This document shows positions 19,501-57,236 of a stretch of 64,000 bases of DNA, piece by piece. The position numbers were made by a program, and so were the translations under genes. The stretch covers positions 13,082,001 through 13,146,000 of the forward strand of contig CM114271.1 in NCBI GenBank assembly GCA_050084515.1, given 5' to 3'. How positions within the stretch are numbered: position 1 is the first letter of the stretch; every line of letters begins with the position of its first letter. This DNA comes from Blasia pusilla. Its lineage: Eukaryota. The notes under the pieces are model-generated. The model searched no databases, was not told the origin of the DNA, and saw nothing but the letters and a program-made list of their open reading frames with translations.

Positions 19501-20970
19501 AACAGTAGCTCCAAAAATACCTCCAAAAATACGGAAACAAATTCCTGCCATCTGTCCCCAATGCGGATAGAATCAAGTTCTCAAGTCCCACACTTACATG
19601 TTTTCGCTTCACGCCCTAAAAAAAATACTGGACTAAAATTTATGCCTTAGCATAAATCGAGTAGTATTACTAGTTCCTATATAATTAAGTTTAAAACGTC
19701 CTTATTTTGAACCATCCCATGACCCATTATAGGAAAGGTCAATGGTCACATCACCCTGGTCCAATCCGATTAAAAATTTCAATTGAATACATGAAAAACT
19801 GAATATTCAGATGATAAGTTCAAAATTAATTTTGAAACCGATGAATTATGGTAATAGAGTCATTAGGTTGAAAGAGTAACCTGTCCATCCCTCTACCCTC
19901 AAGAATTACGGCGGCAGGACTTGATGAGGCAAGTTAGTTACTCATGATGTAAGATACGTCATAAGCTGCAATTTGGGCTGCCTTCCTCAGTTGAATGTCT
20001 TTTGAGTGTATTCCTTTATAACTAGACAGTGCCCGTGCTCCCGGGTGAAATATAGGAACTAAAATTAACCCAAATAGGACACTTTTTGGACTCTTATATT
20101 CGCCCTCTCTAATAATAATATAGATGTGTAAAAGGACTGGCACTTCAACCTCCATGAAAAGCATGTCATTCTACATTTTGTCTTTCTTTCCAACGGTGGT
20201 GCACTCCTTCTGCAATTTTACCCTACCCTCCACAACTAGGATTTGTAACAGTCTGAGGTCTGCACTCATAGCAGAGGGGGGCAAAGGTGAACTAAACTGG
20301 ACGGCACTCCATTTTCATGGGCATTCCGTTCAGTGCATTAGAGAACGAGTAAGGATAAGAAACTCCATCCCTAAACTCTCATGCACCAAGGCAAAGTCCC
20401 AAGTAGCATCAAATTCCTGCTGTGATGGATACTAAACTTCACCTATGGTTACACAAACTACAATTCAACATGTAATTTCTATCCTGGGTATGCAACTCCA
20501 TCCAAGGAGATATACTCTGTAGTGCCATGGTAAAACCCAATATTGCACTCACATTATTGCTGTTGGCAATCACGAGCATGGACAACTGTACCTGATTGAA
20601 AAATGCACCCTGGCTCATTACGGGTGAATGGAGTGAACAATCATGAATGACATTTCCACAATGCTCCCATGAATCTCTCCGTATCAACTACAAATTTACA
20701 TGCCCAGCTGGTCAACAAAGCAATCACCTCATTGCCATTGTTGAAAGTGCTTACTGCGCCTTACCTATAATTTATAAAACACAAACTTGGACAATACTAT
20801 GCAAGTGGATGCATGGTTTGTCACAAGTGGAAACACCCTATCAAAGAATCAAGTCATGGAGCTCCCTCGCGTGGGCAGAGGACCAGGGAAAAAGCCCGCA
20901 AGAAACAAACCCTAACCAATTCCAGTACTGTTTAGATTTAAGTATCTGCGTGACCGGATTTATGGCCATT

Positions 20971-23831
20971 CTATCTACTGTGACTGTTGAATTTTATGTA
21001 CGCAACTAAGAATATTGCGAAGATAAGCACAGCAATTATACCCCCCATGATCCACTTGTTCCGACTCATTCTGCGGCCCATTGAATTAAGGATTCGCCTG
21101 CTCTTCCCAATGTTGTCATCAACTCCATGCAACTGCATACGGCAGTATATGGTCAGCTCCAATACCAGAAAACAAAATTCACTGTTAAAGCAGCATGACA
21201 GACTTGATCCTAGAAGTTCCAAAACCCCCCTAAGCTCTTGAGGATCCGCTGGCCAATCCCAATGTTGTCATCAACTCCAAGCAACTGCATCAGACATACA
21301 CATCAGTTCTCACACACCAGTAGTACAGATGGGGTGAATACTCCATGCTTTCAAAATAAGGAACAATCAACACAATGTTCACACGATATGGGATGTGACT
21401 GGCTTCATGGCTGTCACAAGATAAAGATCAGTAAAAATAACAACTCAGATCTAAACGTCTTGAAAGATTGGCAGGCAGTAGTCTTCATGCCACCTAAGCC
21501 AACATGAAACTAAAGTGGCATGTATTGAATACTAAACTCAGACAGGGAAGTTGTATTTTCGACATGGTGCACAACTTGAGGGCATACCAAGAGGTCAATA
21601 CCTCAGCACCCAGGTTCATAAATTCTCATCAAATAATCCCGCAAAGCATTTTTTTTTTCAGTGGGGAGGTAGTCTGTGAGTGGTACATAAACAGACCACA
21701 TACTGTGCATAATGAAAAGAGTATACCCTGATGGGAGGAACCACCCCAACTCGACTAAAATTTAAGGGTAAACCTGCACCACCTCCATTGCATGAAGTCA
21801 TAGATGGTGAAAGAGTGCTATAACCAGAGTTTGATGACAGTACTGACATTTTTTCTAATCCCGATCAGGACTTGCAGTTTTGTTCGGAGAACACTATTTC
21901 TTAAGCTCAACCACCTATTTCACAGATGTCCCTGTTTTGAGATATCTACCGGAATGGAGGCTCCCATGCACTATTACCGCAGATTTGAAGTACAATCCAA
22001 GGTACTGTTAAAGAATACTCTCTCAATAATTTCTAAAATGAAGAAAACCACAAGTCATGCATTGTTTCAAAATTTCCAACCACCCACGCATGGCAGTAGC
22101 CTTGCCCTTCATTCCAAGAGGTAGAATATGATCTACCTCATGTCAGAAGAACACCACAGATGCAAGAAACTTTAGGAGGACCACTAGAGACATGTCACGC
22201 TTGCTGAAGAACCACAGTCCAGATAAAAAAAAAATTCGAGAAACTTCCTCTTTACCAGATCCACTGAAACATTGCATTGGCACTCCCCATCCGCAAGGCA
22301 AGAATTTCAACAAGAAGAACCCAAAAAAAACGGATGTCAGAATTACTCATACTTATACCCCTGATTTCAGCCAATGCCCATTTGCTAGTGTAAAGTACTA
22401 CGGTGCTCTAATTTGCATTAGGAACTCTGATAAATTGACATACCGTATCTCGTGCGTGCAGAAGAGTTTGTCGTTGCTGATGTAGATCCTGCAGAATAGA
22501 TACACCAAGCTCTTCTGTTTCTAGCAATGTCCTCTTGCTATCTTTCACTCTCTCTCCAGTCTGGCTCAACTTTTCAGTTGACATTATCAGTCTTGCTCTT
22601 TGATCTGCAGAAGTCTGCACAGTGATTACCAAGGAAATGCAACACCTGTGATTAGATATAGACACGAGACTGGGTCAAACTTTGAAAGTAATTGTCAATG
22701 CTGTCATCAGACTGGTGAAGACAACTCACTTCACTCCCCAGCTCCTCACATAATGAACTCTCCGACATATTCCTTATATGAGTTTAAGAACTGCACGCCC
22801 TGGATCAAGAAAGTAAGTCATTCATTACCAAACCAGATTCTGCCATTCCTCCCTCCATCAGCTCATCCCTAGCAGCAAGGGAATCATTTGTTGACGCTGA
22901 CTTCTTCACCTCCCGCTTCAGATTATTCAAGTCTGACTTGTATTCTCGCAACTTGGCGAGCAGTGTGGCTTTTTGAGTAGGAGGTAAACTTCGAGCCTCC
23001 AGATCCATCCTTCGTATCTGCGAATACACAGTTACAGCTGGAGGTGTCAGAAATAAGTTTCCAGTAATGGAAACATGCAAACTTAAGTTTCTAGGGTTGA
23101 AAAACTGGAAAAAATCGAACCGCACTGCAAAACTACCTCAGCAATGAACAGTCCCAGCAGGATATAGAGTCAGGGATCTCATTCGAACATAAGGAATAAA
23201 CAAGATGCCATCGACTCTGTGTTAGTACACATTGGACCATTCACTCTTCTAACGAATCTCCACCCTCGCTGACGGAGATCACCCTCGTGATTAAAAACAT
23301 CATGTCCGAATAGTGGTCTCAAGACATTTATGTACGAACATGTTTCCAAGAAATGAAATCATTTGAAAGACGGGGAAAGAAGAGAAGGTTCACAGCCTGT
23401 ACTAATCGTACCAAAGACTCCGCTTCATCCAGTCCGGTCTTGAGCTCTGCAAGCTTCTGCTTCTTCTCTTCTGTGGAATTTCACGAGGTATAGTTGGAAA
23501 AGAATCAAACTCGGCACTTGATCCGACATTCTTGAATTGAAAGGAATTCTTAACGATGTATCCAACTCATCTGGAACTACAAAATCAACGAAGCATGAAG
23601 CCTACATAACTTCGTCAAACCCTAAGCATACTGGGCATTCGAATGACGTACAGGTTCATAGCAGGCGTTTTGGACGACTCAAAGACAGTTATACAACAGT
23701 GAGAAAAATTTGCGAAAAGAAGAGAACAGTCGCATACCTCCATTAAGGAGCCCAATAGATGTACATTTGCGGGACAGATTCGACGAAAGCTCACAGTACT
23801 GCCGTTCATAGCCCTCAAATATATCACTCAT
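20971..23831 (-). CDS. VTI1: VTI1-family Qb-SNARE (VTI11/12/13-like), 224 aa; exons 23831-23738, 23470-23412, 23017-22829, 22614-22444, 21132-20971
   Basis: MSDIFEGYERQYCELS..., EEKKQKLAELKTGLDEAESL, IRRMDLEARSL, SNARE motif LLETEELGVSILQDLHQQRQTLLHA..LHGVDDNIGKSRRIL and C-terminal transmembrane segment KWIMGGIIAVLIFAIFLVAYIK. Exon lengths 94+59+189+171+162 = 675 nt keep frame, with GT-AG introns. Confidence 0.96.
21210..21284 (-). other. Diverged duplicate of the 5' part of the VTI1 last exon, with an intact acceptor (candidate alternative terminal exon)
   Basis: ctgatgcag|TTG CTT GGA GTT GAT GAC AAC ATT GGG ... TAG = LLGVDDNIGIGQRILKSLGGFWNF*, versus the canonical gtatgcag|LHGVDDNIGKSRRILNSMGRR. 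Confidence 0.8.
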
Positions 23832-24814
23832 GCTTGAAGGCTTAATGAGAAGAGACTGGAAAATACGGGACGAACAAAGACAATACGAGAGGAAGCGAGC
23901 ACGTCCTCCTTTTCAGCCTAAGCGTCGCGGTTGGATAAAACAAGACGATCGACGGCTTGTACGGGAAAAATCTCCTTTCCACCACACTCGTGTAAGATCT
24001 GTTGAACAATCAGAGCGAGGACAACAGGAAGCTTTGGGCGAAAGACTAAAGCTTCCCAAGTGCATCAACGAGGTCCGCGAAACTTTCTCTCAATGTGTGA
24101 CCAGAACACGAGAAGCAAATAGAAGGGATGAACGAACCGATCATTTACTCAATTCACAACTCAGCGTCGCATGCATGACCGGAGCCACTTCCCCGACAAG
24201 AAGAGCCCAATCCGAGGGTTTCGAACCTCTTCCACGACGCTGGACTGCTCGGGGAAGCTCGAATGATCGGGAAAGTCAGTTCTGGGCAGAAGCGACGTGA
24301 TAAGAGGTGGAATGATCTGTACAAAGATGAGAGCCCGCAGAGAAACTGGAAGACACAAGCCGGGGCTCTGGAGATAGCGTTGGCGCAAAGGAAAGAGCAA
24401 GTTCAACACCCCCGTGCGCTGCATGAAAGAAGAACAGAAGCTTTCCGAAAGGAGTATCGTGAACCCGCGGAATAATACTGGGCTGGGCTAATACACAATC
24501 CATCATATCTACAGAACCCGCGATCTTTCTAGTTCCTGTGAGAAAGAAAAATGTACTGCACAACAGCACCACAGAAAACGCTCTCGGGTTTGGGTGGAGA
24601 AGACGAAAGCAAACCAGCGGCAGGCCGAAAACAAATAGCGGGCCGGGCGTTTCACGATCAGGCGAGGCGAGCGACTGACCGCGAATTGGGTACAACAACG
24701 TGTCGGCGCCGATGATCCAAAACCCGCCACTGATTGTTCGCTTTTGCATACATTCTAGTTTTCACTCGGCTTTGAGAGGAAGAAAGCTATGCTAATACTG
24801 GAATTCATATTTTA

Positions 24815-26800
24815 TTAGTAAGGTGCCCGTGTAGTAAACAGTAAAGGGAAGATTTATTTTATCAAATTTATTTCATTTCAATATTTTTTTATGTCTTGTA
24901 TATTTTATATTTAATGTGTAGTCGCCTTTCTTATTTGAAAGGTCATCTTTTTCATTGTTATGTGGATGGAACTTTTGTCTCCTACTCTAGATAATGCTAT
25001 GTGGAAAAATATATGAGTAGGCAAGTAAATGCCAACCTTTTGCAAAGTTTGACCTTACGACTTATTAGTAGTCATAGCAGAAGCCGACCTAATAGGAAAT
25101 TGAAACCTACGTAAATCAAATGGGGAATCTCATGCAATCAATGGAATACGTGGAATAAAAATGCAATCTCCAATATTCTTTCCATTGATAATTTCACCAT
25201 CGATGCAATATCTCATAAATCCACGAATCACCATTCTTGTCTTGTTTGTTTGTCCATATGACCCATTCATATTTTGTTAGAGCATGATTGGTGCACCAAT
25301 CTTCAAACACAAACGATGCGGAGAAAGTCTAGAAGGCAAACATATGTTCAAGAATTCAGTTGGGTAGATATGAGTCATCCCCTCCTTCGGAATAGAGTCG
25401 ACGTTGAGGTAAATATGCTCATGTACATAATATGTAATGAATTAGTGAGAAAAGCTAATATTAGTATCCAAACTTCCAAGAAAGGTATAGATAGAAATAC
25501 AAAGGAGATAAGCCTAAAGGGTTACCTCTCCAGGGAACCGAGACATAACATCTGCATTTATGTCGTGAACATCTTTATTTCTTAGAGTCAAAATAGTTGT
25601 ATCTCTTAAGAAATCAATGTCATGGAATCGGCTAGGAAAATTGCCATAGATCAAATCAATAAGATCACATATCTTGTTACTATTAGTAATAATTTCATAT
25701 GGTAATCGTATAAAGTCTTCTCCCAAATGACAGTGTAAAGGTACACGATCCTCTCCCACTTCCAACAACCAATCAGCAAAAGATTGTTGTTCATCATGCA
25801 AATGACCATCCAACCTTTAAACTCTTATGCTTGTTTTCAACTTTATGACCCTTATATTGGACCAAAGAGATGATCCCTTTATGGTGGCTTGGATTATTTG
25901 GGGCCGATCCCCATGACAAACAACAGGCAATACTTGACGAAAATCACCACCAAATACCATAAGTTCTCCATCGAATGGTAATTTCCAAGATTATGTATTG
26001 TAAATTTGTAATGCTAACTGATTGTCAATGTAATGAACTTACGTTCGAGATGTTTCAAGGAGGAGTTCATCTTCAACTTGTGTTTGTTGTGCTAAGATTT
26101 CCTTGCGACAGGCACGCCTTTTTTGTTGTGCATTTGCACGCATCAATCTTCAGAAATTGCGCAAAACCGTAGGATTTTATGGAAGAGGAAGTATGAGCAA
26201 CAAATGGGGGCATTGCATCATAATTAAAATCTTCATTGTGGAAATAATTATGAATTTTTGGAAGTCACATAAATTTGTAGGCATCATCGTGGAATGTAAA
26301 TACATTGGTTCCATCCCTACTCTAAACAAAGATGCTTACATTGGAGAGGTGTTCTTCAAATGTTGGATTTGTCTCCCTGAAATTAGATTCGAAATCGGCA
26401 TATTCGTGATAACACCTAGAGGCTATCTCTCCACGTTCCATAAAAATCCATCGGTACTCGCCATCTAAATGACACATCACAAAACTAATTATTAAAGTTT
26501 TCACTTGAAATAAGAAGATAAAATAAATGAAGAATAGACAAATGATGAAATAAGAAGATAAACAATGATGTGATTTTTAGTAGGGAAAAGAAAAATGATG
26601 AAGAAATTTTAGAAGAGGTAGAGGGGAATTTTAATAAGAGGTAGAAGGGAATTTTAATTAGAAGCAGAGGGGAATTTTAATAAGAGGTAGAGGGGAATTT
26701 TAATTAGAAGTAGATGGGAATTTTAATTAGACCCTAAATTTCCAAATTCTGAAAAAAAAGGAAAATAGGGAAATATCCATTTTCCTTTTTCTTTAAAAAA
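24815..26800 (-). mobile_element. Helitron copy 2 (same family as copy 1), with a large internal deletion and a retained 3' end
   Basis: About 24870-25985 is the reverse complement of copy 1 ~5020-6110 (QQSFADWLLEVGE...RFPGE). 26020-26122 matches copy 1 172-275. The minus strand ends ...cacgggcaccttaCTAA|T at 24815. The 5' limit is uncertain. Confidence 0.88.
26614..26728. repeat. 23-bp minisatellite, 5 copies
   Basis: Unit aga(g/a)g(t/c)agaggggaattttaat(a/t) repeated five times. Confidence 0.9.
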
Positions 26801-30509: not shown

Positions 30510-33500
30510 GTACGCATACACATCGTCCGTCACCTAATCGCCACCCTGGACGATAAGCAACGGTCTCCTCCCTAAAGTCAAGGATGAATCCTAGGGGATA
30601 TACAATGTACTCCCCACCAACATATCGTTCGACTCAACTGGTGTCGTAATCGCACATATGCGCACCATAGCACTATTTGTCGCATGCTCTAGCTGGACTC
30701 TAACATATATCTCTTGTCGAGTCATATACTCCGTGGGTGACACGTCCCCAATCAAGGTTTGTATCTAGAAGGCAGGCATAAACCCCATACTAGTGAGATC
30801 CTCGCCCGGGCCAGGGTAAGAGGTGGAAGCTGGAGCCACACTAGCAACTCTCGACTCACTAGTATGGGGTTTATGAGGATCTCACTGACTTGTAGGCACC
30901 ATTGGTCGTCAAGGCACCATGGATGGTGTGTGTTGTGCCTCTAACAACGTGATCAAACTGTGGAACCTTGGCTTGCCGCCCATCGGTCCCCTCCGATGGG
31001 TCAATCTCAACTCCACCTCTCGATGGCTCAGTGCCTCTTGCAACATCCTGAGTCACCACCGCAGCAGCCTCAACCTGAGCCGCACTACACATAAACCCCA
31101 TACTAGTGAGATCCTCGCCCGGGCCAGGGTAAGAGGTGGAAGCTGGAGCCACACTAGCAACTCTCGGCTCCGTACCTTCCCTGAGTTGCATCATCGTTAT
31201 GGCAGCAATCCTCTGCTCCAATTGATTGATGCGCGAGAGAAGCACCGTCTCTAGTGCTCTCGCTACATCTCCTCTGGCAGGTGGTGGTCTTCTACCACCA
31301 CGTCCAACAACAACTCCTTGATATCTTCCAAGACGACCGCCCAGGGGCCCTTGGCCTACCTCTGGATGTGCCTCTCGACGGAGGTCAAAACATCTATCCC
31401 TAGTGTGACCAAATCTGTGGCAATAGTCACACTAGTAATATAGTGGGGCCATCCTCTATGGCTCTTGAGCAATCGGAGGCGCTCGTGGTCCCCTCCCATG
31501 CTGTGGGCAGTCTCTCTATCTATGGGCCCCTCCACACATCTAGCAAGACAACATCAGTCCCTGTTGGGCAACATATGTAGGCACGGGTCGTTGCCTCATA
31601 GTCTTATGGTACCCGCCTTGCTCTCTGGGTGCACTCGCCCGCTCCCGTAGTACTGGTGCTCGTTGTGGCACTTGTGGGGTTGTTGTAACCCGTGAACCCG
31701 TTGACTCCCGAGAAAATCTGGTGGTCACCACTTGCTCCTCACTCTTGTTGAGCTCAATACGCTCAGACAACTCAAAGACCACCTTCAGTGTGGGCTTCAT
31801 GGTGTGAAGAAAAATCGCATCGCGGACTCTCCTCCGTAGTTCTCGATCCAGAACCCCTTACTAATACTAGACTGACTGCGCCTCAATCACTCCATAAGTA
31901 GCAATGATCAGCCTCCTCATGCGCATGAACGCCTCTCGTAGACTCTCACCCGATCGTCGTTGAAAATCCTATAGACTCTTCAACTTGTCGGTCCGCACGC
32001 CTTGGTAGCTCCTCCCCAATTGTCGGAAGAACTCCAATGTATGACTAAAAGTGGGTGTCCCTCTACCACGAGAGGTCTCTGCCACCTCACTTGACTCACT
32101 GCCCTCCTCTCCATCTAGTCTCCGGGCTGATGAGATGGGTCTCTCTCCTCTCACGATCCCATCATGTGCCTCGCAACCACTAGTGGATACATATCGTGGA
32201 GCCCAATACATCCTCCAAGCATCAATCTATACTAAATATAGCGATCGGAACTCCATATAATCATCCATCCGAGGACCCTCCAAGTGCTGGAACAACCCCT
32301 TCCATGCCATGAAAGGGTTGAAACGTTTCGGGGTCCGTGTCTCTTGGAAATCAAAGCACGTGTCAAACTCTTAGATGAAGTCATCTAAGTCGATGGTGCC
32401 CAGTGCACCCAAGAAACGACGCATGCCTCGGTGGCCCATGTCGTCCATCGATGTCCTGCCAAGTGACACTATCTCCGTCTGCAATCTTGTCACTAGACCC
32501 GCTGTCCAGTGATGACGATCCAACCACGGATGGAAGTCGAGGTAGCTCCTCACTCATAATCCCTTGGTATCTCACTCCACTCCATGTCACACCACTACTA
32601 CTGCTCGCACTACCCCGTTCTTCCGAACCCGGGAAGAACGTTGAGGACAACCCTGTCTCACCCGCTCAAGCACTCAGACTCACCAAAATTCTTCCACACT
32701 CCTCACTAGCTCACCCGGCCTCCCGCACACTTAATCCCGTGACGACACACCCGGCCTCGCGCACACTCAACACTCGGGCTCACCATGAGCCTCCCAACTA
32801 ACTCACCTAAACTACCAACACTCTCGAATCATACATGTGACCCCTACTCGGCAACCGCTGTATATCCATAAACAAGCTACACATGCATGGAGACTACACG
32901 CATCACCATTGCTACACCCATCTAGCCCCAACAACTACCCAATACCCAACGCTCTCAAGCACATAAGATAAGTGTGGGAAAAGGGACTCGAATGGGTAAC
33001 CTGATCACGCTCTCCAACCTACAGCATCGTCAACACACTCCTCCATGTGGTACGGCAACCTCCGCAATATGACACTCTCCTCGACACACGTCAAACCTCC
33101 CAGCAATGGATGCAGACTACCCGTCGGCATTGACACGTGTGTCTCCATCACAACCCTAGAAAATCCCACTCGGTGAAGAACTAATGAGTCGACCCCCAAC
33201 CGACTTGTAATAACTGCCAAGCTCTTGTCGCAAATCCCACCATGCTCGCGAAACACCAAGTTTCAAAATGCTCTCCTACTACGTAATTCAACGCAGTCAC
33301 ATCCGCCCCCTCAAGCTAGTAGCCTGAACCAACCACGTATGACTCCTTGCTAATACCACGTCTGCTCTTGCCTCTACCACGTCAGCCTTGCCCGACTACG
33401 TCCTTTTGATTGACCACGTCCGCCCTGCTTGACTATGTCAACCCTGACCACATCTGGCTTGCCTACCACGTCTACGCTGTCAGCTATGTCTGCCCCGCCA

Positions 33501-50152: not shown

Positions 50153-53100
50153 ATGAGTTTTACGTGGTGGAAGGAGTTTCTATGGGGGGGAATGGCGGGT
50201 GTCATTGGAGAGACTATTATGCATCCGGTGGATACCCTCAAGACTCGGATTCAGACTGGAAGTCAGAGTGGAATTTCAACCCTCAAGGTAAGTGTTCGTC
50301 TGGCCATCCCTCTTTGTAGCATAAACTCGCTCGTTTGTTGACAGGTCTGGGAATTTGGTATCCTAGATTCACCTGAGGTTTGTGACCTACTCGAGTGCAA
50401 AGAGAAAGGTCAGGAGAATCAGGCATCATTCCAACATTGGGAGGATTCTCAAGCTTTGTGACCCAGTTGGTAGCCGTGGTTCCTCATACAATTCGTTGTC
50501 TCATGGGTGTTCCTACTGTGTAGGAGTATCTCTCTCCTGGTGGTTCCCCCGTGGTTTCCATGTGTCATAACTGTGTGTAGGAGCTTGTGTCTATTTTTGT
50601 GCCGTAGAGTATTTGGAGTACATGGGCTACTCTCAAGTTGGGTACTTTCTCCAGCGGCAGAGTGAAAGTTAAGAGAGGCTGGTCCATCGGGTGCTTTTGG
50701 TAATGCCAATTCTCGGCGGACTGAAAATTGTGTGGCAGGAACCACCAGCGCTGTTAGCATTCCTTTGTTTAACAGTGAGTTCCGTTTAGAATGGGCTGGT
50801 TCATTGTCCACTGTCTGGCAAGACCATCCGTTCCAGGGTTAGAGTTCGATGAGCGGGGGAATCGAGAAGGGAGGTCTTGAGGAAACTGACATGTCTCGGC
50901 ATAGGCATGCACAGAGCTCATACGAGGAACATGACAAATTTAATAATAAATGATTAATTTTACATTCGTTTTGATTCCCGATTAAAGTTTTAAGGGCGTT
51001 TGGAATTATATCCGACTGGAATTTTCATGGAAGAATGTCTCGATTGTGAATCTACAGAGACACAATGCCATACGAGGTGCCTTTGGAGCGATTTGGAAGC
51101 GTGATGGTTTTCAAGGTGCGGAGATCAAATGCTTTCAATGAACCTATGAAGTGGATGTTTTCTGTATATGCGGAACAATTTTAAACAAACTTACCTCAAA
51201 TGTCACTTTTAGAAATGCCTGGAATCCTGAAATCTGATCGCCAGAAATGGTCAGATTTACTCTCTTGGAATTTAAATAGAATCTGTGTAATTTTCATGTG
51301 GTCCTTGCGATTGCCTGGGTCCTATAATGACAAATGTTTTGTTTTGTGGGCTGATACAGGTTTTTATCGCGGGGTTGTTCCTGGAATGACGGGTTCTTTA
51401 GCAACCGGGGCTACATATTTTGGATTTATAGAGACCACAAAAGATTGGCTAAACGTGAGTCACCCCAGCTTAGCCGGCCCTTGGGCGCACTTCCTAGCTG
51501 GTGCTACTGGTGAGGTTCAAGCCATGCATGGCTCTAGTGCTCATCGAGAAATGAGATTGTGAGTGTCACTCATAATGTGGAGCCATCAGTTTCAACTGGT
51601 TGCTGAAGGGATGGGTCAGTGTTTTTTCTGTTGAAAACAGCTAGTAGGCTGGATTTGTGCACCAAAAAAGTCTGGGACTGGGGATAATTCATGCCTTGTT
51701 TTGCTTTGCTTTGCTTTGTGAAGTGGCAGGAAATTGCTTGCACATGAATAGGTAGGAGGCTCAAAATATGTTATTGTAAGCCAGAGATTTTTTGCATTAT
51801 TTTGCTAGTGTAGACCATGTCGCTTGGGTGCAAAACTGATGAGCTGTTCACTAGCAGAATACTTACCAGTATTTTGTGGACGTTCAGGTGATACTTTAGG
51901 GTCAGTGATATACGTACCCTGTGAGGTGATCAAGCAACGAATGCAGATACAGGGCAGTAAAAAAGCATGGCAAGCAAGTATGACTAAGTTGAATTCTGCA
52001 CCTGGAGGTTCATATTACTACACTGGTGTATTCAGTGCTGTGAAGTCTATACTACGACAAGAAGGTGTACACGGTCTATATGCTGGGTAAATTGTAGGCA
52101 TAGTCATGACCTTCTCTACTGGGCTGTGTCTTCTCTTCGTTTCTCACATATTGGCCATCCACCTCAGATTCGATTTTCAGAGGCTTACCTGTTGTATTGG
52201 TTGACTGCTAGGTGGTTGTTCTTCTTCTGTGTGTTGGGTGAACTCTGGGCATGTTTCTGACCTTCTCTACTGGGCTGGGTCTTCTCTTTTTTTCTTCACA
52301 TACTTGTAATCCAATGCACATTTCATTTTTAGAGGCTTCCATGCTGTGTTGGTTGACTGTTGGGTGGATGTTCTTCTTGAAGTCTACAGATTTAATCCTA
52401 GGTTGTAGTGCCATTTTGATTTTTGGGGTTCGTTTGGTCACTGTGTAAAGTACTATATTATGTTACTTTGGTGAATTGCCGGCATTAAGATTGAATCATT
52501 AAAACAGTGTGGTGCATGTGATAAATGGTTTCTTGCCCTACTTATTGAACTATAAGCCTTTTCTGCCTTGTAGTGTGTAACACATGGTACTCTATGCTGT
52601 TCAGGTACTTATCCACATTGGCACGAGATGTTCCTTTCGCGGGTTTCCAGGTGAACAATTTTCTAGTAGTTTTCTACGTCTTTTGCTGTCTATTCCAATG
52701 GTGGATGTTCTTCTGACTGGACGTCGTTTTGTGTCCCAGATAATGTTTTATGAAGCACTGAGGGAGTCTGTGGAGTGGAGACATGCAAGCCTTTCTATCA
52801 AGGGTTCAACACCGCAAAAGTATGAATTTGGTTCGGTCGAGGAGCTATGTCTAGGTGGTGCTGCTGGTGGTAAGATTAATGGCTCATCGTTCTTTGTCGG
52901 TTTTGTGTTTCAGCATCCGGGTGGGGGTTATGGCATGGGAAACTGAAGATTAGAATGTACTTTCTTGGGGATTGCTATTCATCTGCTTGTTTAATCCACT
53001 TTGCGGAGCCAAGGATGGTCATCACCTTTAATATTTTCTGTGCTTGTCTGAAATTGGTATGTGAAGTTACATTGTGTTCTTGAATACCCTGAAGTTTCTA

Positions 53101-54749
53101 CTTAGATTTATTGGTTGTCTCCTTTGATGCTTTCTGTGCAGTTGAATGCAACGAGAAAAATATTGGTTCTAAATTTCAGTGGATAGACATGAACTACGAA
53201 ATATGCTGAATCTCTTGGGGACTATGACGGCTATAGGAAGTCAATTAGGAGACTGATTGTTGCAGGATATTAATTAGCAGTAGCCCTGGTTCTGTAAGTT
53301 GTGTCTGATGGACCTCCTTGTCCGGTTGATATGTGTCAGTCAACTTTGTAGAATATCCCGGATTTCTTGAAGAGGTTTCTCATGAAAGATGTTAGACTTT
53401 ATTAATCTATATGGAGATTTTTCTGATACATCAATGGATCACTATCACTCAGGAGACCATGATGGTTGTAGGAAATCAATTAGCAGTAGCCCTGGTTCCT
53501 TAAGTTGGTGTTGGATTTACGTACTTGTTTTGTTGATTTGTGTCATTCAACTTTGAAGAAGATCCCAGATTTCTTGAAGAGGCTTCTCATGAAAGATGTT
53601 AAACTTAATTAACCCACATGGAATTTTTTCTGACAAACATGGATCACTATCATAGAGGATGAGGGTGTCGAAATTCTCACACAGAAACTGTTATCACGCC
53701 AAGGGGGTCAAGTGCGATGACTGTGAAATTATACAGCTTGTGGAGAGTAGTAGTAGATTTAGAATTTTGACTGCTAATGACTATACACTGTGAGCAAGTA
53801 TGCAGCTCAATCATGCCTTGAGGTTAGAACTGAAATGATTTTTGACAGTACTTTTTCTCTCAGAACTGCATGGAAGAGGAAACCTTGGAATTTGTGGTGT
53901 TGGTGTGATGACTGCGAAATCATACAGCTTGTAGAGTGTAGTGGTAGCTTTAGAATTTTGACTGCTTATGACTTTACACTGTGATCATGTATGCAGCTCA
54001 ATCATGCCTTGAGTTTGGAACCGAAATGATTTTTGACAGTACTTTTCTCTTAGAACTCCATGGAAGGGGAAACCTTGGAATTGGTGGTGTTGATATCTGG
54101 TTGTAGATTGGACCTCCCAACTAGCAATCAGAACTCTGGGATAGACATGCATGCCATCTTTGGATCTGAATTTATTGGGAGGATTTTCTTATGTGTTACC
54201 CATCTTGGCTGCAACTGCTCCTCATCAGGCATTAGTGCATTTCTGACTACACCAATGGATGTTATCAAGACTCGACTTCAAGTTCAAGGATCAAATATTC
54301 GGTGAGAATTAATACTCTTCCTTTTTGGGATGCTGAGGCCTATCTATTGTACTAGAGTGAGTGGATTGTTAGATATGCATGGCATTGGGGATATTATGTA
54401 AAGCGCTAAACACACCCATACTGAAAATTTTGTTTGCAGTTACAATGGCTGGGTGGATGCACTTCAAACAATTTGGAGAGAAGAACATGTGGCAGGACTT
54501 TTCAAAGGAGCTGTTCCACGGGTCATGTGGTTTGTGCCAGCAGCTGGTCTGACTTTCATGGCTGTTGAACTGTTGCGAAAAACCTTCAATGATGGTCCTG
54601 TACACCAGATTGAGACTTTCTCAAGTCCACTACCAACAAGAACCTGTGGTTTAGTTGATGACTCCATGGAATCTCATCCTGCATATGAGGAGCAAATCAG
54701 GGGAGTAGTGAATCCGGTGCAGCAAAGTCAGAAAATACTAGAACCGTAG
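50153..54749 (+). CDS. Mitochondrial carrier family (SLC25) protein, At1g74240-like; exons 50153-50287, 51058-51115, 51360-51509, 51888-52086, 52605-52650, 52740-52869, 54229-54301, 54440-54749
   Basis: Three carrier signatures Px[DE]xx[KR]xR (HPVDTLKTR, VPCEVIKQR, TPMDVIKTR), plus GFYRG, GSLATGATYFGFIE, TLARDVPFAG and GLFKGAVPRV. GT-AG introns are in phase. The start codon is uncertain. Confidence 0.93.
52106..52375. repeat. Intronic tandem duplication, period about 150 bp
   Basis: tgaccttctctactgggctg...gaggctt...ggttgactg occurs twice (from about 52108 and 52258). Confidence 0.8.
53272..53652. repeat. Intronic tandem duplication, period about 205 bp
   Basis: aattagcagtagccctggttc...gatttcttgaagagg...atggatcactatca occurs twice. 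Confidence 0.85.
53712..54092. repeat. Intronic tandem duplication, period about 190 bp
   Basis: gatgactg...tagaattttgactgct...gcagctcaatcatgccttgag...aaaccttggaatt.gtggtgttg occurs twice. Confidence 0.9.
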
Positions 54750-56808: not shown

Positions 56809-57236
56809 TTAGTAAGGTGTTCGTGCGATGCACGGGAAATAAAAAAGTGTTTGAACAGCTAGCGTATAGCCCGTGAAGGGAAGAGATTAATGATGCAAGA
56901 CATAAATTCAATTTTTTTTCTTACTTCATGTATTATGTGAAATATTTTCTTGTTGCCTAGTTGCCACGTGTCAAGGAGAGAGGCGTTTCCAAATCAGGAA
57001 GACACTCTCCCACAATATAGATAGATGAGGTGCTCGTGCGATGCACTTGAAATAAAAAAGTGTTTGAAGAGTTAGTGTATAGCCCGTGAAGGGAAGAGAT
57101 TATTGATGCTACATATAAACTCATTTTTTTTTTTACTGTCCGTAACCTGTGAAACATTTTTTTACTGTCCAGTTGCCACGTGTCAAGCATAGAGGTGTTT
57201 GCAAATCAAGAAGACACTCTCCCATAATAATATAGA
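56809..57236 (-). mobile_element. Two head-to-tail ~210-bp non-autonomous mini-Helitrons
   Basis: Each minus-strand unit starts TCTAT. The terminal unit carries the hairpin cgtgcatcgcacg and ends ccttaCTAA|T, the same terminal sequence as Helitron copy 2. Confidence 0.8.

Follow-up and report, generated by a model that had tools for sequence, protein, structure and literature searches.

The last intron of the VTI1 gene of the liverwort Blasia pusilla raises the question of whether a plant Qb-SNARE gene can produce, beside its tail-anchored protein, a soluble form without an anchor and, if so, whether that form is selected or tolerated as a by-product of splicing. A first-pass annotation of the window analysed here (64 kb of contig CM114271.1) had noticed in this intron a diverged copy of the acceptor and first codons of the last exon, and had proposed that splicing to it would yield a cytosolic regulator or an NMD-coupled dosage switch. 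The form spliced at position 21284 is real, transcribed and spliced as predicted there, but minor: the two acceptors compete at about 93:7, and the minor open reading frame comprises the N-terminal domain and the full SNARE motif without an anchor.

VTI1 lies on the minus strand and consists of five coding exons specifying a product of 224 aa (Table 1). Three raw-read RNA libraries (X8–X10, all from one study, 6–12% of each run read) and a contig set, X1, were mapped to 20300–24800, and all four introns were confirmed by 63–107 junction reads per library. In the main isoform, PF05008 is recognized in exon 3 (48.6 bits, above the cut-off) and PF12352 in exon 4 (48.3 bits), with residues 1–22 of the last exon corresponding to positions 45–66 of the latter profile, albeit below the cut-off on their own. 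The transmembrane anchor in the true last exon reaches a maximum 19-residue Kyte-Doolittle score of 2.83. The homologue P0004 aligns to the Vti1a and Vti1b chains 2nps_C and 1gl2_C, and exon 4 has its best homologues, with 89% identity, in Marchantia paleacea and Riccia fluitans. The gene is single-copy, as genome searches with exon 4 and PF05008 (best two candidates scored in each) matched this locus only; for mosses and seed plants, 2–5 VTI1 genes have been described (PMC7573729). A minor intron of 282 nt in the VTI1 5′ UTR (23856–24137, minus strand), seen in four spliced reads from X10 only, is mostly retained. Upstream of the gene, at about 24800–26000, lies a decayed stretch that by eye resembles a remnant of a Helitron/PIF1-type helicase, followed by a 23-nt tandem array at 26580–26754.

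Table 1. Features of the VTI1 locus, in gene order (positions refer to the window).
Feature	Positions	Strand	Evidence and remarks
VTI1 5′ UTR	upper end ~24400–24450	minus	read depth; X1 contig 23738–24451
CDS exon 1	23738–23831	minus	ATG at 23831; joint 23470–23738, read depth
CDS exon 2	23412–23470	minus	RNA joints on both sides
CDS exon 3, C-terminal part of the N-terminal helical domain (PF05008)	22829–23017	minus	RNA joints; Pfam profile
CDS exon 4, SNARE motif up to layer +2, including the zero-layer Gln	22444–22614	minus	RNA joints; Pfam profile
Exon 4 donor, common to both acceptors	22443	minus	RNA joints
Last intron	21133–22443	minus	1311 nt in the major form, 1159 nt with the copy acceptor; RNA joints
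Duplicated intron 3′ end	21285–21326	minus	branch-point-like CTGAT (read from the sequence) and minor acceptor AG; shuffle p = 0.002
Putatively homogenized core of the copy	21257–21290	minus	1 mismatch in 34 nt; 0 with the RNA-strain allele
Alternative terminal coding segment	21210–21284	minus	codons 1–19, covering layers +3 to +8, homologous to the true exon; GFWNF and stop follow; 21/311 junction reads
True last CDS exon, layers +3 to +8, basic linker and transmembrane anchor	20971–21132	minus	stop 20973–20971; 290/311 junction reads
VTI1 3′ UTR	20610–20970	minus	main read-end cluster about 20612–20677

Exon 4 is joined to 21132 by 99, 107 and 84 reads in the three libraries and to 21284 by 7, 9 and 5 reads, the latter beginning at 4, 3 and 5 start places, respectively. 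The silence of the upstream acceptor, which had been named in advance as the outcome that would count against its use, is not what the reads show, as all three raw-read libraries contain the predicted joint from 22444 (7/106, 9/116 and 5/89). The pooled usage of 6.8% (Wilson CI 4.5–10.1%, which treats reads as independent though some have the same start) is, if anything, slightly low, because reads with short overhangs would tend to be placed at 21132. Usage is even across the libraries (chi-square p = 0.83), which is weak evidence given that all three come from one study. Mis-mapping was ruled out: no read fits two places, and the longest short sides of the spliced reads (55, 72 and 70 nt) exceed the 28 near-identical exon nucleotides. 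Among the 35 non-canonical YAG sites of the last intron, 21284 alone has a joint at a threshold of three reads. Background depth within the intron is 0.3–8 per bin, versus about 90–130 in bins filled by exons 3 and 4, and intron retention or pre-mRNA is thus similar in scale to the use of 21284. Among the X1 contigs, which drop rare forms, no 21284 joint is present; the copy occurs there only in an unspliced contig (21104–21657) with a depth of 8, compared to 421 for the main joint.

The RNA also corrects one detail of the copy. Its codon 2 had been read as Leu, which holds for the window and X1, but is a strain variant: all 39 RNA reads over 21280 carry the allele that makes this codon His, matching the true exon. 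X8–X10 and the window differ by fixed or nearly fixed letters at 21280, 22973, 23766, 23839, 20310, 21393 and 21670, and an X1 contig has a 19-nt deletion within an intron at 23261; these are strain or allele variation, and the fixed differences at 22973, 23766 and 23839 indicate that the RNA libraries derive from another strain.

The existence of a diverged copy 152 nt upstream of the true last exon is borne out by a two-copy direct repeat of 53 nt with 85% identity (21238–21290 and 21086–21138), with a local alignment score of 74 against a maximum of 35 in 1000 shuffles of the intron. On the intron side, homology covers about 42 nt (21285–21326 versus 21133–21174), and it is not significant upstream of 21326 (shuffle p = 0.94) or past codon 19 (shuffle p = 0.17); the roughly 18 copied codons originally reported are real, although the similarity actually reaches codon 19. 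The upstream coding exons total 513 nt, hence the copy acceptor is in the correct phase 0, as had been stated, and its frame continues for 24 codons to a TAG at 21212–21210. A paralogue or a dispersed repeat as the source of the copy was ruled out, given that the genome (top candidates scored) matches this locus only, and the copy alone has no Pfam match.

Identity between the two copies is patchy, with 1 mismatch in 34 nt followed by 14 in 29 (Fisher p = 4e-5; max-chi permutation 0/5000). Across codons 1–9, none of the 6 synonymous sites has changed, whereas the same codons vary freely among other plant VTI1 genes (pS 0.57, versus 0.68 for codons 10–19). Because these codons are not synonymously frozen in other plants, conversion fits better than a general constraint on the RNA, and we infer that the duplication is old and that the acceptor region was overwritten by conversion recently. 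The RNA around the two acceptors does not fold into an unusually stable local structure, with 196 of 200 shuffles folding equally well or better.

The window is rich in local duplications, with 17 direct-repeat families of at least 30 nt found within 1.5 kb. In one of these, within a neighbouring gene recognized by eye and taken to be a mitochondrial carrier look-alike, an exon end and its 5′ splice site are duplicated 151 nt downstream (52075–52144 and 52226–52295, plus strand; 80% identity, GT kept), which, judging from the sequence, is a donor-side analogue of the VTI1 copy. Three two-copy tandem units of about 206, 191 and 213 nt are located at 53254–53659, 53712–54092 and 56815–57229 (plus strand), the first two within one intron of the same carrier-like gene; copy 1 of the first unit has a micro-exon-like segment of 28 nt between AG and GTAAGT, and this GT has been lost from copy 2. 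A direct repeat of 81 nt with 99% identity (30777–30857 and 31090–31170, 313 nt apart) lies in a GC-rich skewed region.

Beyond the core of the copy, in codons 10–19, changes affect 4.8 of the 7 synonymous sites and 9.2 of the 23 non-synonymous ones, yielding a JC dN/dS of about 0.31. In a neutral simulation, in which the same number of substitutions was placed at random, the observed protein similarity had P = 0.007 (BLOSUM62) or 0.04 (plant profile) for codons 10–19, and P = 0.024 or 0.039 for codons 10–24, that is, to the stop. Given their synonymous divergence, codons 10–19 look old, and they appear suggestively more protein-like than neutral, for a stretch of ten codons with a boundary set partly post hoc and by eye. 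This synonymous bias, together with the use of the acceptor, the single-copy state of VTI1 and the end of homology at layer +8, close to the end of PF12352 at exon residue 22, would fit a selected minor isoform, namely, a soluble Qb-SNARE with the N-terminal domain and all layers but without the basic linker and the anchor. We consider such an isoform possible, if doubtful. The counts behind the bias are tiny, and the substitutions K10I, S11G, R12Q and M18L are each absent from all 119 homologue segments (65 distinct), one of them replacing the otherwise invariant Ser of layer +6; against the plant profile, codons 10–19 score −2.4 in the copy and 29.5 in the true exon. Old, synonymous-biased divergence would also be left in the remnant of a once-complete alternative terminal exon that had its own anchor and was later truncated, in which case the coding signal would be historical. 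Some faint resemblance past codon 19 can be made out by eye, but it falls short of significance, and the approximately 110 nt from the copy acceptor to the next unit are too short for a 53-codon exon unless part has been deleted, which makes this origin improbable.

The copy was also looked for in other plants. Of 72 metagenome VTI1 loci, 45 contain the whole last intron (21 distinct last exons), and none is recognizably liverwort. No internal copy was found in the last intron of any of the 45 (best score 28, within the shuffle range); by sequence, these loci resemble mosses and seed plants and so show only that the copy is not general. Three of the metagenome last exons (L058, L059 and L065) belong to a moss-like VTI1 copy, probably a pseudogene, that carries an in-frame stop together with a short deletion in the transmembrane segment. 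Among 209 fetched homologues with a recognizable zero layer, none has the tail of the copy. Twelve of these have short or altered tails, of which 11 diverge at the same junction, before layer +3, losing layers +3 to +8, and the remaining one is a normal exon cut short, a pattern that sets the Blasia form apart and counts in favour of a selected isoform. Against it, the alternative tail is absent from the Marchantia cluster (3 members) and from the two Riccia clusters (1 member each), although annotation easily misses a form at 7%. All of the 120 matches listed, out of 1510, in a profile search with alignment A1 are at least 219 aa long. Among 1.84 billion representatives, none matched the open frame of 30 residues that ends in the copy at E ≤ 0.001, a search without power, as ordinary VTI1 was not returned either. 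The intron-derived start of P0125, a member of the Marchantia cluster, is at least 4 edits from the true acceptor and at least 6 from the copy (shuffle mean 9.8, minimum 6), lower bounds from which no date for the duplication can be drawn. In the last intron, the 3′-terminal stretch 21133–21163, which includes the CTGAC, seems conserved with P0125 (at least 4 edits over 30 nt, against the same shuffle mean of 9.8).

The minor open reading frame is predicted to encode 195 aa, comprising the N-terminal domain and the SNARE motif to layer +8 without a transmembrane segment. Loss of the anchor, as originally proposed, is evident from the stop after 24 codons and from the maximum 19-residue Kyte-Doolittle score of the tail, 0.43 versus 2.83 in the true exon. 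The proposal that the copy completes most of the SNARE helix was right in that the motif is restored and too modest in its extent, the helix being complete to layer +8. If heptads are counted from the Gln of the zero layer and layers are numbered by the usual convention, the residues at +3 to +8 are L V I G L L for the copy, compared with L V I S L M for the true exon; the layer residues had been described as conserved, and each indeed retains a hydrophobic or small residue, but Ser is replaced by Gly at layer +6 and Met by Leu at layer +8. A protein of this kind could still zipper with its cognate SNAREs, but it would have no anchor of its own by which to pull on a membrane. At 7% of the transcripts and with layers +6 and +8 altered, the minor form should be a weak competitor. 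It is speculation that the aromatic tail confers weak peripheral membrane binding.

What becomes of the minor mRNA bears on the second proposal, an NMD-coupled dosage switch, in which use of the upstream acceptor would lead to mRNA decay and true usage would exceed the steady-state 7%. If the transcript runs through the true exon, the 3′ UTR would grow from about 290–360 nt in the major form to about 530–600 nt, which counts in favour of such a switch. However, no splice joint with at least three reads lies downstream of the new stop, so that a junction at least 50 nt beyond it is lacking, and in moss, 3′ UTR junctions rather than long 3′ UTRs are described as predicting NMD targeting (PMC6009662). 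NMD of the minor mRNA is therefore unlikely, and a poison acceptor needs no copied reading frame; the dosage switch is not supported and appears very improbable, and it is plausible that some protein is made. Between 21133 and 21209, where depth is only about 10, no read-end cluster was listed, and the unspliced X1 contig extends from the copy into the true exon.

Taken together, these observations incline us to regard 21284 as a tolerated minor acceptor, refreshed by gene conversion and under weak or relaxed selection, an account we hold to be somewhat more probable than not. An old local tandem duplication would have placed a second version of the last 3′ splice site, together with no fewer than 19 codons of the last VTI1 exon, 152 nt upstream. 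Short-tract gene conversion, as the simplest mechanism, would later have re-homogenized the central 34 nt with the true exon, keeping the acceptor in working order, and the spliceosome takes this AG in about 7% of events. The minor mRNA most likely continues into the true last exon, which would then serve as 3′ UTR, and, having no later junction, probably escapes junction-triggered NMD. If translated, it would yield a predicted cytosolic VTI1 of 195 aa, in which the N-terminal domain is retained and the SNARE motif, though altered, is complete; in VTI1 SNARE complexes, this protein would compete weakly at most. A tolerated acceptor is consistent with the low, even usage on the scale of the intron background, the patchy identity, the four substitutions unseen among homologues, the strain difference at codon 2, the repeat families of the window, and the absence of the copy from the 45 loci and of its tail from the 209 homologues. 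Less easily accommodated are the dN/dS and the simulation P values, the end of similarity just after layer +8 with every layer hydrophobic or small, and the restriction of joints to 1 of 35 YAG sites. The main rival, a selected form, is accordingly given a lesser though real chance. Such an isoform might join VTI1 SNARE complexes, damping or buffering fusion or contributing unanchored in a lineage with a single VTI1, but the even usage across the three libraries of one study speaks, if weakly, against this.

At the mRNA level, the minor form has what marks a soluble SNARE splice isoform, namely, a spliced mRNA and a predicted non-membrane tail. In the soluble syntaxin isoforms (Stx3S, Stx1AS/Stx1C and Stx1B-deltaTMD), splicing likewise swaps the anchor for a short tail, in Stx1AS through an alternative 3′ acceptor (10.1101/162958), and Stx3S is stated to make up from 4% of Stx3 mRNA in lung to >50% in testis and brain (10.1101/162958; review PMC13740333). 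By contrast, these are animal Qa-SNAREs with mutually unrelated tails described as hydrophilic, whereas the VTI1 minor form, known here from mRNA, is a plant Qb-SNARE that rebuilds the C-terminal half of the SNARE motif from a duplicated exon start; the available text of the review mentions neither Vti1 nor plants. Arabidopsis SYP23 is described as a cytoplasmic plant SNARE without a transmembrane domain (PMC8508612), but has a Qa-SNARE gene of its own instead of arising by minor splicing from a single-copy Qb gene. Together with the anchor-less syntaxins, including Stx1AS, it offers precedent for a selected form. The locus also shares with substitutions derived from tandem exon duplication, human cases of which include STX3 and SNAP25, the alternative use of adjacent homologous coding segments to give an alternative C-terminus; C-terminal cases are tied to alternative poly(A), and most events are reported as conserved, with 100/111 internal events found in fish (PMC8373072). 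The VTI1 copy differs in being partial and in using an alternative 3′ splice site, with no separate poly(A) site seen at a depth of about 10. Annotated anchor-less plant VTI1 isoforms (e.g., P0017, Populus isoform X2; P0080; P0093) diverge at the same junction and also lack the anchor, but they lose layers +3 to +8, which the Blasia minor form keeps. No plant Qb-SNARE form in which a duplicated exon start restores the whole SNARE motif was found in the literature searched, mostly outside subscription journals.

Anchor-less SNARE splice forms have been described mostly for animal syntaxins. If the Blasia form is not selected, it would be a clean example of local duplication and gene conversion creating and maintaining a minor splice site. 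A more tentative possibility still is that in complex thalloid liverworts, with one VTI1, a duplicated exon start came under selection and provided the lineage with a soluble Qb-SNARE of its own, reaching to layer +8 without linker or anchor and tuning vacuolar or TGN fusion, with conversion matching the 5′ half and the 3′ half retuned; equally tentatively, it might represent an alternative to the VTI1 family expansion of mosses and seed plants. If the form is selected, the question of whether plants tune membrane fusion with soluble SNAREs of their own could be put to the test in this haploid, single-copy system by editing one AG.
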